Notes under the pieces: model-generated | The model's input: the letters and a program-made list of their open reading frames with translations, nothing else | What the model was told of the DNA's origin: nothing | Databases searched by the model: none | Part shown: piece after piece, positions 3,735-29,668 of the stretch | How positions within the stretch are numbered: position 1 is the first letter of the stretch | How the letters are laid out: the number at the start of each line of letters is the position of its first letter | From: a virus | Taxonomy: Duplodnaviria; Caudoviricetes | Strand: one strand, 5' to 3' | DNA length: 33,463 nt | Virus record (IMG/VR): IMGVR_UViG_3300017913_001944 | Coordinates: 1 to 33,463 of that record | Position numbers and translations under genes: made by a program

Positions 3735-4002
3735 ACGTGCAGCCAATATATTTGCCAAAAACATCAACATGATGGTGCCCTGGTATTTGATGGCTGCATA
3801 TGCATACTACCGAGAAGATAATCCAATATTGTCAGACAGTTTTTTTGATGAGATGGCAAAAACAATGCTTGAAGTATGGGATGATATCGAACACTTTCAC
3901 AAGCATCTAATCAACAAGGATGATTTAGCCGCTGGTACATATCTTGGAGAATATCCACTGCGTGTACAAGGCGGACTAGAAAATCTAAGAAAAGATAAGT
4001 AA
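3724..4002 (+). CDS. Stand-alone protein resembling subdomain Ia of NAD+-dependent DNA ligase
   Basis: YLMAAYAYYREDNPILSDSFFD matches the LigA Ia pattern YY..D.P.ISD..(Y/F)D. Confidence 0.65.
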   Translation: MMDERAANIFAKNINMMVPWYLMAAYAYYREDNPILSDSFFDEMAKTMLEVWDDIEHFHKHLINKDDLAAGTYLGEYPLRVQGGLENLRKDK

Positions 4003-4022
4003 TAATAGCACAAGGAAAGAAA

Positions 4023-4220
4023 ATGTTTACAGTTACCTTTTATGTTATCGCAGGACTTTTTGTCGCAGCATGTGCATTTTTTAGTTACCGTAGTGGGCAA
4101 GCTGATGGAATGACTCAGGGCATGGATTCAACTCTAGTATTGTTGGAAACAGCTGGAATTATCAAGCTTCAGGAAGATGCAAACGGTGACTTGCAAATTT
4201 TAGCAGTGGAAAATGACTAA
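4023..4220 (+). CDS. Small membrane-anchored hypothetical protein
   Basis: AAGGA SD; N-terminal transmembrane (TM) helix. Confidence 0.7.
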   Translation: MFTVTFYVIAGLFVAACAFFSYRSGQADGMTQGMDSTLVLLETAGIIKLQEDANGDLQILAVEND

Positions 4221-15907: not shown

Positions 15908-16207
15908 ATGATTGAAGAAAGCACAAAACAGTGGGTTAAAAAGCACTTGCCTGATAGCGAGCTGCATATTGAATTTACCAAAAAAGATGGCACAGTGCGT
16001 AAGATGAGATGCACGTTAGATGAACAATATGTGCCAAAAGCAACAAAAGAAGAACCATTGTCTCAAAAGAAAGTTCGCGCAGTGAATGAAGAAGTTCAGG
16101 TTGTCTGGGACCTTGATAAAGAAGCATGGCGTAGTTTTCGTTGGGATAGTGTAGTAGATGCGTTCCGTTTCCCACACGGAAATGGCGACTATGAGGCGTA
16201 TGACTGA
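15908..16207 (+). CDS. WYL_2 / Sm-like SH3 beta-barrel protein
   Basis: FTKKDGTVRKMRCTL ... VWDLDKEAWRSFRWD. Confidence 0.8.
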   Translation: MIEESTKQWVKKHLPDSELHIEFTKKDGTVRKMRCTLDEQYVPKATKEEPLSQKKVRAVNEEVQVVWDLDKEAWRSFRWDSVVDAFRFPHGNGDYEAYD

Positions 16208-16989
16208 TGCGCATTATTGCCGGTCCTTGTCAGCATGAATCTTTGGCGCAAAGTTTAGACATTGCTACAGAGTGTAAACGTGTGTGTGACAAGTATGGCA
16301 TTGACTATTACTTCAAAGCAAGTTTTGACAAAGCAAATCGTACACATGTAGATGGTAAAAGAGGAGTTGGACTAGAACAAACTCTTACTGATTTTTTGGC
16401 ACTAAAGGTTGAACTAGGTGTAAAAACTCTAACAGATGTGCATGACTATGTACAGGTAAATCGTATAGAACGAGAGTTTAAGGATGCAGTAGATGTTTAT
16501 CAAATACCTGCATTCCTGTGTCGACAAACTGACCTAATACAAACAGCATGTAAGACAGATAAAATTATAAATATTAAAAAGGGACAATTTCTGGCACCTT
16601 GGGATGTAGCAGGAATTTTAAGCAAAACAGAAGGTGCTCGGGAAGTCTGGATTACAGAGAGAGGCACGAGTTTTGGATATAACACCCTTGTTGTTGATTA
16701 CACTGGTATTGACTACATGCTCAATAATTTTAGCAATCCTATTGTGTTGGATTGTACACACGCTGCCCAAAAACCCGGAGGACAAGGGACTAGCAGTGGG
16801 GGGAATCGTGATCTTGTGCCTGGCATTGCCCGTTGCGGCTCTGCTCTGGGCGTCACAAATTTCTTCATTGAAACGCACAGAATGCCTGATAACGCACCAT
16901 CCGATGGTCCAAATATGCTTCAAATAGACGACTTTGAACGAGTTGTAAGAGACATTATCAAATATTCTTATCGTCCGGAGGAAAAATAA
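16207..16989 (+). CDS. kdsA: Kdo-8-phosphate synthase (metal-dependent type)
   Basis: AGPC, KASFDKANRT, QIPAFLCRQTDL, KKGQFL, ERG, APSDG. Confidence 0.95.
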   Translation: MRIIAGPCQHESLAQSLDIATECKRVCDKYGIDYYFKASFDKANRTHVDGKRGVGLEQTLTDFLALKVELGVKTLTDVHDYVQVNRIEREFKDAVDVYQIPAFLCRQTDLIQTACKTDKIINIKKGQFLAPWDVAGILSKTEGAREVWITERGTSFGYNTLVVDYTGIDYMLNNFSNPIVLDCTHAAQKPGGQGTSSGGNRDLVPGIARCGSALGVTNFFIETHRMPDNAPSDGPNMLQIDDFERVVRDIIKYSYRPEEK

Positions 16990-17042
16990 TGACACTTATA
17001 CTTCCTAGTGGAATAATAATTAACTGGAACAATATGGCATGA
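16989..17042 (+). CDS. 17-aa coupling mini-ORF between kdsA and kdsB
   Basis: MTLILPSGIIINWNNMA; TAATG overlap with the kdsA stop and ATGA overlap with the kdsB start. Confidence 0.45.
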   Translation: MTLILPSGIIINWNNMA

Positions 17043-17722
17043 CAAAGACTGCAATCTTTATACCTGCACGTTACCACAGCTCTAGATTTCCTGGCAAGCC
17101 ACTAACGATGCTGGGCGATAAAACTATGATTGCACGTGTGGTAGAAGGTTGTTTAAAAACTGGTCGTGATGTTTTTGTTTTAACCGATAACAAGACTATT
17201 GCTATGGCTGCGAAATCAGCCGGTGCTGAAATATATATTGATAGTGGAGATTATCAGAACGGAACTGAACGTTGTGCTGGTGCAGTTGCAAGTCGTAAGT
17301 TTACTGACTATGATCAGTTTATCAATGTGCAAGGCGATATGCCAGATGTTACAGTTGAAATGATTGAAAAAGCAGAATGGATGCTCAAGCATTATACAAC
17401 CTCAACTGTAGCAACACAAATGCTGGACGAAAGACTTAATGATCCCAACAGTGTAAAACTTGTACGAGCTGGCGATAAAGTACTGTGGTGTGGCAGAGGA
17501 ATGGCAGGCTATGGTGACTGGCATTTGGGAGTATATGGTTATAGACGTAATGCATTACAGAGTTATCCACACTTAATGATTACAAGAGAAGAAAGACAAG
17601 AGTCACTGGAACAACTGCGTTGGTTGAAAAATGGTTGGGATATGGGAGTTCTACCTGTAGATTATAATGGCATTGAAATCAACACACCAGAAGATGCGGA
17701 GAGATGGAATGAAAGCAGGTAA
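17039..17722 (+). CDS. kdsB: CMP-Kdo synthetase
   Basis: IPARYHSSRFPGKPL, GTER, NVQGD, HLGVYGY, ESLEQLR, INTPED. Confidence 0.95.
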   Translation: MTKTAIFIPARYHSSRFPGKPLTMLGDKTMIARVVEGCLKTGRDVFVLTDNKTIAMAAKSAGAEIYIDSGDYQNGTERCAGAVASRKFTDYDQFINVQGDMPDVTVEMIEKAEWMLKHYTTSTVATQMLDERLNDPNSVKLVRAGDKVLWCGRGMAGYGDWHLGVYGYRRNALQSYPHLMITREERQESLEQLRWLKNGWDMGVLPVDYNGIEINTPEDAERWNESR

Positions 17723-18056
17723 GGTATGGGGAGTAACTGAGTTACTGGAAGCCAACGGTGTATTGGAGTTTCATCGTATTGAAATGAATGCAGGCGGGGT
17801 ATGTAGTAAACACTTGCATGAATATAAATGGAACGGCTTCTTTGTTGAAAGCGGAAAGATGTTGATTCGTGTTTGGCAAAATGATTATGATTTGGTAGAC
17901 GAAACTGTACTGGAAGCTGGACAATATACCAAAGTAAAACCCGGAGTATACCATCAATTTGAGTGTATCGAGGACGGCGTAGCATTTGAACTGTATTGGG
18001 CAGAGTTTAATCACAACGATATCAAGCGAGAAACAGTGGGTTATTTATCAGATTAG
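17709..18056 (+). CDS. Cupin-domain protein (sugar isomerase-like)
   Basis: KVWG, SKHLH, PGVYHQF. Start refined to ATG 17709. Confidence 0.8.
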   Translation: MKAGKVWGVTELLEANGVLEFHRIEMNAGGVCSKHLHEYKWNGFFVESGKMLIRVWQNDYDLVDETVLEAGQYTKVKPGVYHQFECIEDGVAFELYWAEFNHNDIKRETVGYLSD

Positions 18057-20206: not shown

Positions 20207-20241
20207 GCAGTGGGCAATATAAAATTGCCCGCTGCATTTTT
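20207..20241 (+). terminator. Intrinsic terminator
   Basis: GCAGTGGGCAAT-ATAAA-ATTGCCCGCTGC followed by ATTTTT. Confidence 0.7.
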
Positions 20242-20312
20242 GTCTTGCAAGATATGCATTAGACGCATATCGTAATTGCAAGAATACGTAAGCAATACTG
20301 CTATTTCTCGAC

Positions 20313-20350
20313 TAAATACAATTGACAACAATGCTGCAATGCAGTATATT
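20313..20350 (+). promoter_or_regulatory. Dual late/sigma70 promoter with a palindromic PhaR-like operator in the spacer
   Basis: TAAATA at 20313-20318; TTGACA at 20322-20327, 17 nt, TATATT at 20345-20350; CTGC-AAT-GCAG at 20334-20344. Confidence 0.65.
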
Positions 20351-20356
20351 GTAGAT

Positions 20357-20494
20357 ACTACAGAGCGACCTCAGCTCAGAAAAAATGAGTGGCACTTGGA
20401 AAGACAAGCGGATATCCCATCCGATAAAAGGTGTGACGCTGGAAGAGACCAGGGTATTGCTTTCCTCAAGCATCCGAACAACATGGAGAAAAAG
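20357..20494 (+). ncRNA. Putative multi-hairpin structured leader RNA
   Basis: Consecutive short hairpins at 20374-20390, 20395-20408, 20409-20423, 20439-20452 and 20458-20472 ahead of a GGAG SD. Confidence 0.55.
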
Positions 20495-20677
20495 ATGACA
20501 CAGACATTTTTTAAAGGTCTGACGGATTTTCTATGCGGACAACGATCGAGTGCTGCATATAGAAAAGACCTGATGACATGGGCAAAAACAGAATACCCAA
20601 AAGATTGGGAATTCGCCTACAACTATATGCTTCGTCACAATGGCAAAGCACCAGAATACAGAGGTATGACACTATGA
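20495..20677 (+). CDS. 60-aa hypothetical protein
   Basis: GGAG SD before ATG 20495; WAKTEYPKDWEFAYNYM. Confidence 0.7.
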   Translation: MTQTFFKGLTDFLCGQRSSAAYRKDLMTWAKTEYPKDWEFAYNYMLRHNGKAPEYRGMTL

Positions 20678-20904
20678 TTAATATTTTAAAAGCAGCACTT
20701 ATTAACTGGAGAAACGAAAGACAACATCGTTTAGCAGTTAAAGAAACAATTAATGAACTACGTAAGTTATCAGATCACGAATTGTGGGACATTGGTTTAT
20801 CACGTGGTGATATTTGGGCAGTAGCAAATGATTCACATAAAAAGCCAGCTAAAGTAGAAGCAGAAGACGTTCAAGTAAACGCAAACATTCGAGGATGGGT
20901 ATAA
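20674..20904 (+). CDS. DUF1127 (YjiS/CcaF1-like) protein
   Basis: ELRKLSDHELWDIGLSRGDI signature; GAGGT SD; ATGA overlap. Confidence 0.88.
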   Translation: MINILKAALINWRNERQHRLAVKETINELRKLSDHELWDIGLSRGDIWAVANDSHKKPAKVEAEDVQVNANIRGWV

Positions 20905-21095
20905 TGACAACACTAGTAATGAACTACACAGTAAATCCAATTTGGAACGTATTACGTTCGATTGGCCGCGGTATAATTCACTCACAAATGGTATTGGGTT
21001 ATAGTCGTGCGGCAGCAGAACTAGCTCGCCAGGGCTATTATGAGGAATCAAAAGAAGTAATGATGCGCCTGTCAGAACTTCAAGCAAACAAATAA
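20904..21095 (+). CDS. Small hypothetical protein
   Basis: GAGG SD; TAATG coupling; GYSRAAAELARQGYYEE. Confidence 0.7.
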   Translation: MTTLVMNYTVNPIWNVLRSIGRGIIHSQMVLGYSRAAAELARQGYYEESKEVMMRLSELQANK

Positions 21096-21116
21096 TAATG
21101 ATTCAACCTCCCAAAT

Positions 21117-21144
21117 AAAAAGAGCAGGAAACTGCTCTTTTTTT
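21117..21144 (+). terminator. Intrinsic terminator
   Basis: AAAAAGAGCAG-GAAA-CTGCTCTTTTTTT. Confidence 0.85.
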
Positions 21145-21167
21145 GTGATTTCCATTATCTGTGTAGA

Positions 21168-21173
21168 TAAATA
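21168..21173 (+). promoter_or_regulatory. Late promoter core TAAATA, 5 nt before ATG
   Basis: GA-TAAATA-ATAAT-ATG; no SD. Confidence 0.6.
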
Positions 21174-25383: not shown

Positions 25384-25938
25384 ATGAGTAAAATTGGTAC
25401 TACAGTACCACAGGTGACTTTCCGTGTTCGAGTACGTGACGAAAGCATCGGTGGAGACAATCCATTCCGTTGGCAGGACTATACAACGGACGACTTTTTC
25501 AAAGGTAAGCGTGTAGTGGTATTTTCACTACCAGGTGCATTTACCCCAACATGTAGCACATACCAGCTACCAGGTTTTGAAAACAATGCACAAGCGTTTT
25601 ATGACAAAGGTGTTGACGACATTTATTGTGTAAGTGTAAATGATAGTTTTGTTATGAACAAATGGGCTCAGCAAGTAGTAGATGGTGGCTTGCAAAATGT
25701 GAAAGTAATTCCAGACGGCAATGCTGAGTTTACTGAAGGCCTAGATATGCTATCATGCTTTACAGCACGTGGCTTTGGTTGCCGTAGCTGGCGATATGCA
25801 ATGGTTGTGGATAACGGAGAAATTACACATTTCTTTGAAGAGCCAGGCCGCCAAGGATGTGAGATTGACAGTGACCCAGAGCGTGACACTGATCCATATA
25901 CAGTAACATCACCGGAGCATGTCCTAGAGGCACTATGA
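25384..25938 (+). CDS. Peroxiredoxin (Prx5 type)
   Basis: LPGAFTPTCS, SVNDSFVM, PDGNAEFT, RSWRYAM; AAGGAG SD. Confidence 0.94.
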   Translation: MSKIGTTVPQVTFRVRVRDESIGGDNPFRWQDYTTDDFFKGKRVVVFSLPGAFTPTCSTYQLPGFENNAQAFYDKGVDDIYCVSVNDSFVMNKWAQQVVDGGLQNVKVIPDGNAEFTEGLDMLSCFTARGFGCRSWRYAMVVDNGEITHFFEEPGRQGCEIDSDPERDTDPYTVTSPEHVLEAL

Positions 25939-27261: not shown

Positions 27262-27455
27262 CAGATAAAAGTATTGCCGAACTTATTTTTACAATTGAAG
27301 TGTTGACACAAGAGATAGAATATGCTAAAACTTGTTTGCAACCACACGACACTGGACACATTCATACAGCAATTGGTTGGATGACAGAGCGTGTAATGCA
27401 GTTGGAAAATGAAGTAAGGACAATAGAATATTCTGCCCTTAGCTCAGCTGGATAG
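27258..27455 (+). CDS. Small hypothetical protein
   Basis: ATGA overlap; LQPHDTGHIHTAI. 3' end runs into tRNA-Arg. Confidence 0.65.
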   Translation: MTDKSIAELIFTIEVLTQEIEYAKTCLQPHDTGHIHTAIGWMTERVMQLENEVRTIEYSALSSAG

Positions 27456-27509
27456 AGCAGCTGACTTCTAATCAGCAGGTCGAGGGTTCGAATCCTTCAG
27501 GGCAGGCCA
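27433..27509 (+). tRNA. tRNA-Arg(TCT)
   Basis: Acceptor CTGCCCT/AGGGCAG, anticodon arm GCTGA-CTTCTAA-TCAGC, TTCGAAT loop, CCA. Confidence 0.95.
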
Positions 27510-27515
27510 ATAACT

Positions 27516-27605
27516 GGACGGTTGGGTGAGCGGCTGAAACCACCTCCCTGCTAAGGAGGCATACCTTAACGGGTATCGTGGGTTCGAATCCCACACCGTC
27601 CGCCA
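27516..27605 (+). tRNA. tRNA-Ser(GCT)
   Basis: GGACGGT/ACCGTCC, CCTCC-CTGCTAA-GGAGG, long variable arm, discriminator G, CCA. Confidence 0.95.
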
Positions 27606-27618
27606 TAAGGAAAACAAA

Positions 27619-27915
27619 ATGAAGTTTGAAGATATTAAATTTACAGATGCTCCTCAACTTGGTAACAATGCTATTCAGGCATTTATCAAATTTAAAGATA
27701 CTGACTATAAGATGAGTGTGGTAAGGCATGCTGGGTCTTATGGATTTGAGCTTCATAGATATGAACTAGGAGTGTTCAATGGACCAAACATGGTTTCATT
27801 TCCTCCTATCACACTGGAAGATGATCAGGTTAGAGGCTATTTAAAGCCTCATCAGATCTCTAATTATATTGCTAAAATGGGAACAATGCTGGAGGCGGAA
27901 CCCTATCAAGACTAA
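27619..27915 (+). CDS. Hypothetical phage protein
   Basis: AAGGA SD; SVVRHAGSYG...YELGV...DDQVRGYL; lies between tRNA pairs. Confidence 0.75.
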   Translation: MKFEDIKFTDAPQLGNNAIQAFIKFKDTDYKMSVVRHAGSYGFELHRYELGVFNGPNMVSFPPITLEDDQVRGYLKPHQISNYIAKMGTMLEAEPYQD

Positions 27916-27921
27916 GTTTAA

Positions 27922-28005
27922 GCGGACGTGGTGAAATCGGTAAACACAACGGACTTAAAATCCGTCGCTTATGGCTTGAGGGTTCAAGTCCCTCCGTCCG
28001 CACCA
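27922..28005 (+). tRNA. tRNA-Leu(TAA)
   Basis: GCGGACG/CGTCCGC, ACGGA-CTTAAAA-TCCGT, variable arm, CCA. Confidence 0.95.
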
Positions 28006-28009
28006 AATT

Positions 28010-28085
28010 GCTCCTGTAGCTTAACGGTTAAAGCCCCCCGCTCATAACGGGTTGACTGTAGGTTCGAATCCTACCGGGAGCACCA
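28010..28085 (+). tRNA. tRNA with CAT anticodon, probably Ile2 (lysidine) rather than Met
   Basis: GCTCCTG/CGGGAGC, CTCATAA loop, CCA. Paired G1-C72 (not initiator); C4-G69 and C5-G68 as in TilS substrates. Confidence 0.85.
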
Positions 28086-28816: not shown

Positions 28817-29668
28817 ATGGACTACAAAGTTCAAAACGGTTTGTTGTATTACACAAACACAGCTGGCGATTGGCAGCAAGTAGAATTCTTTCCAACACCA
28901 AATCAAGGCAACAAGATCGAGCCTAAATTCTTAGTTATTCACTTTACTGCTGGCAGAAGTGATGCACGTCAAACAGCAATGTATTTTCAAAAACCAGAAG
29001 CAAAAAGCAGTGCGCATTTGAATTTGGACAAAGACGGCACATTTACACAAAACGTTGAGTTAGATCGCAAAGCATGGCATGCTGGCAAAAGCACATGGGC
29101 TGGTATGACAAATTTAAACAAGCACAGCATTGGGATTGAGGTGTGTAATCCTGGTCCGCTTACTATTACTCGAGGCGGCTACAAAGCATGGTGGGGACAA
29201 ACAATTGACTCACCTGACATCATCGAAGCACCACATCCAAATGATCCCAATGGACCAGTTTATGGCTGGATCCCCTTCACTGAACAACAAGTTAACGCAC
29301 TTATTTCAGTCGGACAGCAACTAATGGCTGAATACAATCTTTGGGAATGTATTGGACATGACATGATTGCTCCAGGACGTAAAACTGATCCAGGTCCATG
29401 TATGAACAATCGTGTGTATGATGCTATTAACGATACAAGAAGCGATCATGGAATTGATTGGGAATGGAAAGTACACCGTGTTAGTGAATATCTAAATGGA
29501 CGCAGTGGTCCTGGCACCAATTATGATGTAGTTTGCCGGTTGCCATTGGACAGCAAAGTTGAAGTAATTCAAAGACAAGGCACATGGTGGTTTGTAGAAA
29601 ACGAAACTGGACAGCAAATCTGGGTACACAGCGGATATCTGTTCAAGAGAAGCACTGCTGATGGCTAG
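28817..29668 (+). CDS. N-acetylmuramoyl-L-alanine amidase (Amidase_2) with C-terminal SH3b domain; endolysin candidate
   Basis: VIHFTA, AWHAG, SIGIE, GHDMI, KTDPG; LNGRSGPGTNY...GTWW...WVHSGYL. Confidence 0.92.
   Translation: MDYKVQNGLLYYTNTAGDWQQVEFFPTPNQGNKIEPKFLVIHFTAGRSDARQTAMYFQKPEAKSSAHLNLDKDGTFTQNVELDRKAWHAGKSTWAGMTNLNKHSIGIEVCNPGPLTITRGGYKAWWGQTIDSPDIIEAPHPNDPNGPVYGWIPFTEQQVNALISVGQQLMAEYNLWECIGHDMIAPGRKTDPGPCMNNRVYDAINDTRSDHGIDWEWKVHRVSEYLNGRSGPGTNYDVVCRLPLDSKVEVIQRQGTWWFVENETGQQIWVHSGYLFKRSTADG

Follow-up and report, generated by a model that had tools for sequence, protein, structure and literature searches.

A modular structured leader RNA, conserved among phages, precedes an apparently host-derived microprotein operon

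The run of short hairpins that precedes three small genes, one of them encoding a DUF1127 protein, raises the question of whether the leader of this phage operon is a conserved RNA in its own right and, if so, to what kind of system it belongs. The earlier note on the window (the whole stretch of 33,463 nucleotides that was analysed) proposed a self-contained system of RNA and small proteins, analogous to the CcsR RNAs and the DUF1127 protein CcaF1. The first part of this proposal stands: the phage does carry small genes and an uncatalogued RNA, both structured and conserved, in one self-contained unit. The analogy does not. Judged from the comparison of sequences, the leader is a real, uncatalogued, phage-restricted and modular RNA located on a host-derived microprotein operon, and it is not a CcsR system. 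That it is a conserved structured RNA is close to certain.

The unit is enclosed by an upstream and a closing terminator, which bears out its self-containment. All five hairpin stems quoted previously are located within positions 20363-20475, and the three small ORFs are coupled as had been proposed, by an ATGA overlap between ORF1 and ORF2 and a TAATG overlap between ORF2 and ORF3. The leader corresponds to positions 20357-20494, and the unit reaches further upstream than was first noted, to a DNA box (20254-20280) and promoter elements (20313-20350). The features are the following:

20207..20240, + strand: intrinsic terminator that ends the preceding 673-aa gene and insulates the unit (hairpin part 20207-20235)
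20254..20280, unstranded: putative LysR-type operator ATGC-N7-GCAT (T-N11-A) with a second half-site
20313..20318, + strand: TAAATA promoter element, which we take to be T4-late-like, 58 bp from the box; found with 69 of 73 leaders, as against 11.8% of shuffles
20322..20350, + strand: sigma70-like promoter TTGACA-17-TATATT, 11 of 12 consensus matches, predicted start at about 20357; its -10 element lies 90 bp from the box
20363..20389, + strand: module A, an H-type pseudoknot, optional in the family (stem 20363-66/20374-77, loop 20370-73 pairing with 20386-89, A-rich linker)
20391..20408, + strand: first repeat hairpin unit, in which a 4-bp stem with a closing G-C pair carries the loop GAAAGA
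20409..20432, + strand: module C, optional: a hairpin of 5 bp with a pyrimidine loop and an A-rich linker, which probably forms a mini-pseudoknot of 2-4 bp
20434..20455, + strand: second repeat hairpin unit, with loop AAGAGA, a 1x1 mismatch and C-G and A-U as its outer pairs
20453..20475, + strand: module E hairpin; its loop contains CC, is complementary to the Shine-Dalgarno sequence that follows and may pair with it
20485..20488, + strand: Shine-Dalgarno sequence GGAG of ORF1
20495..20677, + strand: ORF1, 60 aa, '[WY]AKTEY..DW' family, helical, with bacterial chromosomal homologues
20674..20904, + strand: ORF2, 76 aa, DUF1127 (PF06568, Pfam match)
20904..21095, + strand: ORF3, 63 aa, a helical hairpin protein coupled to DUF1127
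21117..21148, + strand: intrinsic terminator closing the unit (hairpin part 21117-21142)

The CCTCCC to which attention had been drawn does sit just before the closing terminator (21107-21112), and it shows no conservation. Since CCTCC occurs in two of 79 operon tails, the window counted and the ends of the operons parsed roughly, it is attributed to chance. The long frame starting at 20276 (133 aa), raised previously as a possible objection to a non-coding leader, has no Pfam match and is not conserved. Gene callers fuse homologous leaders to ORF1 in two different frames, and the start of the 20276 frame falls within the operator, upstream of both promoter elements.

Folded as a single sequence, the window leader does not stand out from its shuffled versions, 23 of 200 of which do equally well (z -1.31); support for its structure comes from comparison between leaders. 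The concern that the leader might not be conserved is answered by a marine family of at least 101 distinct leaders parsed after de-duplication, essentially all on phage-like contigs; these counts are of sequences and not of independent events. The pattern for the 5' half matched 110 viral stretches, which represent 70 distinct contexts including the window, with 67 full leaders and three dropped as chance, and the pattern for the 3' end matched at least 119 stretches, about 210 being estimated. The family is also reached from the gene side, where 81 of 82 usable ORF1 upstream regions hold at least one repeat unit, compared with 124 of 1640 shuffles; this set consists of the best 80 of 284 viral hits and the best 80 of 586 metagenomic hits, is biased to close relatives, was obtained with a profile made mostly from leader-linked proteins, and excludes seven short upstream regions and one without a start. 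Every leader is placed between a promoter element and a Shine-Dalgarno sequence, and the core formed by module E and a repeat unit is usually more conserved than the DNA of ORF1 (higher in seven of eight pairs).

The leader matches no Rfam family, a match having been named previously as a possible objection, and the Rfam riboswitch models give none even at E 10. With a covariance model, to which true copies score 40-74 bits, no cellular copy is found in 150 + 61 alphaproteobacterial genomes; the seven and one weak matches, the best at 25 bits, are treated as noise. A pattern scan of prokaryotic genomes gave 83 matches, with the full leader in one only, on a MAG contig of phage-like look (L404). 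Seven marine archaeal matches with an intact stem resembling module A were rejected, both of those scanned being the reverse strand of a tRNA. There is no second leader copy in the window, and neither the leader nor ORF1 is matched in the cultured-phage database. Among the papers listed on DUF1127, DUF3563, leader motifs and phage leaders there is no description of the leader, and PMC11975290 contained no motif. One automated candidate, DNAVirus_2114 (Fremin et al. 2023, PMC10690425), has 77 nt and 57 marine Caudoviricetes sequences, with DUF1127 within 25 bp in 28 of them; its table entry, by which it was compared, lists one covarying base and gives no function. It may be part of the leader family, which this catalogue would then already include in part, or another DUF1127 leader.

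The comparison also revises the fold. The first hairpin described previously, GCTCA-GAAAAAA-TGAGT, is not the conserved structure, as the same bases form the H-type pseudoknot of module A. Among the 67 full leaders, loop CUC goes with tail GAG in 57 and loop UUC with tail GAA in 10, so that loop and tail pair in all 67; at the outer end of the stem, 31 leaders have A-U and 36 have G-C. The tail was absent from the search pattern. The covariation score lies above all 500 shuffles and all six slid controls; it reflects one two-sided change per helix, and the events may be few, as the sequences are related. The 10 UUC/GAA variants keep the pseudoknot but disrupt the GCTCA-TGAGT hairpin, which is a possible alternative fold in the other 57. 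Strict module A is present in 22 of the 73 leaders found via the 3' pattern, the others having variant knots, plain hairpins or ACAC runs.

The repeat unit is a hairpin of 18-19 nt with a 4-5-bp stem, a closing G-C pair, loop NNNAGA, a 1x1 mismatch and an outer C-G pair, and it occurs in one, two, three and four copies in 17, 56, 24 and 4 of 101 leaders, respectively. The stems are fully paired in 45 of 53 motif instances, as against a mean of 16.7 (maximum 27) with the arms shuffled, and G-U pairs within them point to an RNA rather than a DNA palindrome. The loops of module C vary freely in sequence, and their complementarity to the tail is 2.71 compared with 2.21 bp, with four of 2000 shuffles as high (17 pairs); a narrower set agrees. 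The last hairpin, module E, is present as described, with a smaller conserved core than was quoted: a 4-bp stem, nearly invariant partly because it was used as the 3'-end search pattern, and a loop of 7-8 nt in which CC is the sole constant. This CC is found in 92 of 92 module E loops and CCUCC in none. An A/C-rich linker and a GGAG-type Shine-Dalgarno sequence follow; the pairing between loop and Shine-Dalgarno sequence would comprise only 2-5 bp, and the latter, being fixed, offers no covariation.

The assignment of ORF2 to DUF1127 is confirmed (E 9e-11; 41.7 bits against a Pfam cut-off of 23.3). For ORF1 and ORF3 neither Pfam nor PHROG contains a matching family. Structure models predict both to be short helical proteins; Foldseek searches with these models give no match at E<=0.001, and the ESM Atlas holds nothing for ORF1 and unnamed viral clusters only for ORF3. 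On sequence evidence the tightest partner of the leader is ORF1, not DUF1127: the first gene after the leader is ORF1 in 82 of 101 cases, DUF3563-like in 7, DUF1127 in 5, ORF3-like in 3 and another gene in 4. DUF1127, previously regarded as the partner, is the second gene in the window and is missing from many leader operons. No single operon gene accompanies every leader, gene order and content being variable, and the sequence beyond the cassette also varies among leader operons. DUF1127 precedes ORF3 in 79 of the 80 loci found with ORF3, and the 49 distinct upstream regions of such pairs contain an hsp20-like gene (by eye) in 29, two other leaders in 16 and the present leader in 4.

Several further observations concern these cassettes. 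DUF1127-ORF3 directly follows an hsp20-like gene, for example, in loci L011 and L025-L029. A second conserved leader, with GGA(G/U)UAAA, a covarying stem and CGGAUCA, stands ahead of DUF1127-ORF3 in 10 of the 49 upstream regions (for example L001 2110-2250, L005, L006, L023 and L050), with a TGC-N7-GCA box in 7 of the 10. In Melnitz, a phage of OM43, genes of the three types (ORF1-like, ORF3-like and DUF1127) stand behind another leader of about 115 nt, which is possibly structured, follows TATAAATA (L420 2134-2281) and has no Rfam match. Sinorhizobium phage Phosso (469 kb) has a lone short DUF1127-like gene, followed by about 320 nt without an annotated gene and a tRNA (L419 2501-2650). A recurrent microprotein of about 15-20 codons that begins with MWPYT(D/E)EE, and another that begins with MLDPDH, are coupled to the cassette end in the operon tails of L095, L115, L117, L121, L136, L156, L223 and L227. 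As first genes, members of the ORF1, DUF3563, DUF1127 and ORF3 families resemble one another in their N-terminal segments (L121 compared with L222/L329; L003 compared with window ORF3), hinting at N-terminal swapping within the cassette.

The ORF1 family comprises 203 representatives at 50% clustering and extends into bacteria. A survey of 401 Alphaproteobacteria yielded homologues in 3, and within the order of those hits (genomes of 0.9-1.6 Mb) 92 of 121 genomes have one, often with a DUF3563-like gene next downstream; ORF3 was found in none of the 401 genomes. Some of the bacterial genes also share a DNA box with the phage operons. A TGC-N7-GCA box is present upstream of 47 of 73 leaders, compared with 6.9% of shuffles, and in 45 of 46 cases it lies 37, 58-59, 69-70, 79-80 or 90 bp from TAAATA, that is, in steps of whole helical turns. 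It has the form of a LysR-type site, an inverted repeat of the T-N11-A type in fixed phase upstream of a promoter. The box recurs in a subgroup of the bacterial ORF1 genes, 84-86 nt upstream of the start: of 13 upstream regions examined 11 were usable, 10 of which have the box and none a hairpin unit. Another subgroup has a different palindrome. The two-gene operon of an ORF1 homologue and a DUF3563-like gene in streamlined Alphaproteobacteria (L595-L617) has a conserved upstream palindrome GTCT-N7-AGAC. Among bacterial DUF1127 genes the TGC-N7-GCA box is found in 4 of 20 usable regions (30 examined), compared with 4.8% of shuffles.

A related regulon is that of VtlR/LsrB, a LysR regulator of Rhizobiales reported to activate small-protein genes directly, as VtlR in Agrobacterium and Brucella (PMC7486931), and its LsrB-dependent promoter is marked by tandem T-N11-A motifs (PMC8844928). 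As described in these sources, the regulon has in common with the phage operons tandem LysR-type boxes before small-protein genes and the GCAT half-site. The phage box, a predicted site, differs in lying on phage DNA before a TAAATA promoter, and none of 57 phage boxes fits the strict consensus GCAT-N3-TG-N3-T as given in PMC8844928.

Four of five long leader-bearing contigs (203-343 kb) encode a T4-like Gp23 capsid. A DUF1127-ORF3 locus (L001) carries nearby, at 3937-4193, a phage-encoded permuted tmRNA of the alphaproteobacterial type, which suggests that the host is probably an alphaproteobacterium. The window itself contains DAHP-synthase-family, cytidylyltransferase and cupin genes at 16207-18056, probably a sugar module of the KdsA/KdsB type, and four tRNA genes at 27433-28082, in the neighbourhood of which lie a peroxiredoxin (25384-25938), an amidase (28817-29668) and several radical SAM genes. 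Contigs from the RNA libraries of four studies cover 20359-20492 with up to 99% identity and derive from relatives, not from the window phage; two of them pass from the 3' end of the leader into ORF1 homologues, and one of 121 nt spans the leader only. Strand, ends and level are unreadable from these contigs, the ends of which are not RNA ends, and DNA carry-over is uncontrolled.

The reading that we prefer, at a probability of roughly 40%, is that of a host-switched operon of three microproteins to which the phage has added a translational operator of the protein-binding type; that the leader acts in cis on its own operon is, taken alone, a good deal better placed and we regard it as probable. 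A host activator of the LysR family would bind the box and switch the operon on. RNases would be kept from the 5' end by the pseudoknot there or by its replacement hairpin, and the repeated hairpins would be binding sites of one RNA-binding protein, their copy number tuning the response. The CC of the module E loop could reach over the A/C-rich linker and pair with GG in the Shine-Dalgarno sequence, in the hairpin-linker-tail geometry also proposed for modules A and C, and occupancy by the protein would shift this pairing. The 'on' and 'off' folds of such a switch, and its ligand, are hypothetical.

A precedent is the translational operator of T4/T2 gene 32, in which a 5' H-type pseudoknot heads a phage leader and translation is controlled through protein binding. 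The present leader resembles it in its 5' H-type pseudoknot, in the T4-like nature of most of its long contigs and, by analogy, in the proposed control by a bound protein, and differs by the addition of a hairpin array and of a hairpin facing the Shine-Dalgarno sequence, and by microproteins downstream instead of a single-strand binding protein. The products would be host-derived stress modulators, with DUF1127 acting on RNA turnover or on PhoR. The bacterial DUF1127 proteins CcaF1 and RSP_0557 are reported to bind RNA (PMC8034643), and small DUF1127 proteins to bind PhoR (PMC12501420). With the latter the phage protein has the Pfam domain in common, and by analogy phosphate uptake would be a plausible host target for a marine phage.

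Other explanations are considered below in order of falling probability. The leader could be a constitutive element of stability or expression, the 5' knot and hairpin array of which block RNase E/J for bulk production of microproteins without any switch. The exchange of module A for unrelated 5' hairpins or ACAC runs would fit such a role, as would the fact that other DUF1127-ORF3 cassettes have other leaders or follow an hsp20-like gene. However, a mere stability element has no need for a sequence-conserved NNNAGA loop, an RRC spacer and a constant CC loop beside the Shine-Dalgarno sequence, and we consider it unlikely.

CsrB provides the comparison for a repeated-hairpin sponge of proteins, and the leader might likewise be cut off and act in trans as a sponge or scaffold that titrates an RNA-binding protein of host or phage. 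One to four near-identical tandem hairpins and the 121-nt RNA-library contig confined to the leader speak for this, and in S. meliloti a DUF1127 gene is reported to give rise to CcsR RNAs through its 5' UTR (PMC8034643). Nevertheless, it is quite unlikely, because neither a terminator nor a conserved 3' end lies between leader and Shine-Dalgarno sequence, there is just one unit in 17 of 101 leaders, other RNA-library contigs run on into ORFs, and many loops, such as CAAAGA, lack GGA.

A sensor similar to a riboswitch is improbable as well. In this case mini-pseudoknots or kissing NNNAGA hairpins would bind a metabolite or ion and close a pseudoknot on the Shine-Dalgarno sequence. The preQ1-I, SAM-II and SAM-V classes are small pseudoknot riboswitches in which a tail pairs back into the loop and can potentially sequester the Shine-Dalgarno sequence, and the aptamer topology of preQ1-I and SAM-II, a hairpin with an A-rich linker and a short tail, is also that of the leader modules. 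Unpaired nucleotides that are invariant are present, and related marine phages are reported to carry riboswitches (PMC9004378). In contrast to these classes, the leader has no Rfam match, consists partly of optional modules, precedes genes unrelated to those ligands and is not found in the cellular genomes searched; dispensable modules A and C and a variable number of units are unusual for an aptamer.

It is highly improbable that the leader is a phage version of the CcsR/cuckoo RNAs, with anti-Shine-Dalgarno loops pairing with host mRNAs in trans and DUF1127 maturing the RNA. As described in PMC8034643, the CIN1 loci, CcsR/cuckoo sRNAs (Rfam ar14, NfeR) with the DUF1127 protein CcaF1, have in common with the phage operon a hairpin RNA co-transcribed with DUF1127, a 5' UTR location as in S. 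meliloti and an alphaproteobacterial setting, and the pyrimidine loops of the leader and the RNA binding of CcaF1 and RSP_0557 add to the likeness. The phage leader, however, does not match Rfam ar14/CcsR and lacks CCUCCUCCC loops, having instead pseudoknots and NNNAGA hairpins; it is phage-borne and linked to ORF1. Absence of CCUCC from the E loops, variable module C loops, the rarity of CCTCC in the tails and the many leader operons without DUF1127 also argue against this explanation, and 45 of the 49 DUF1127-ORF3 pairs stand behind other upstream elements. Finally, antitermination of the boxB/put type past the 21117 terminator, or attenuation by a uORF as published for a duf1127 gene of S. 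meliloti (PMC12218461), is scarcely credible: purine-loop hairpins do precede a basic small protein and a 37-codon uORF (20385-20498) overlaps the start of ORF1, but this uORF is not conserved among the 67 leaders (its AUG is missing in 22, it has 7 codons in 18, and lengths are scattered in the rest), the sequence following the cassette varies, and the next gene in the window has its own TAAATA at 21168.

Catalogues contain few structured RNAs that regulate in cis and occur in phages only. The mechanism of the present leader can be tested directly, since it is short, modular and readily synthesised and occurs naturally with anything from one to four units. The common operator predicts a host LysR protein that would control a phage operon. 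It also draws attention to ORF1 as a near-core microprotein of streamlined marine Alphaproteobacteria, where it is paired with DUF3563. Whether DUF1127 proteins act on RNA or on PhoR could, in addition, be approached from the phage side through this operon. A more far-reaching reading, which is speculative and rather unlikely, is that giant T4-like phages of the sea acquired from Alphaproteobacteria a microprotein regulon under LysR control, operator included, and added to it interchangeable mini-pseudoknots and one to four sensor hairpins that gate the ribosome-binding site, which would constitute a phage-only class of riboregulators, possibly ligand-sensing. If this were true, the phage would read the physiological state of its host twice, at the level of DNA and at the level of RNA, before releasing microproteins that modulate PhoR or RNases.
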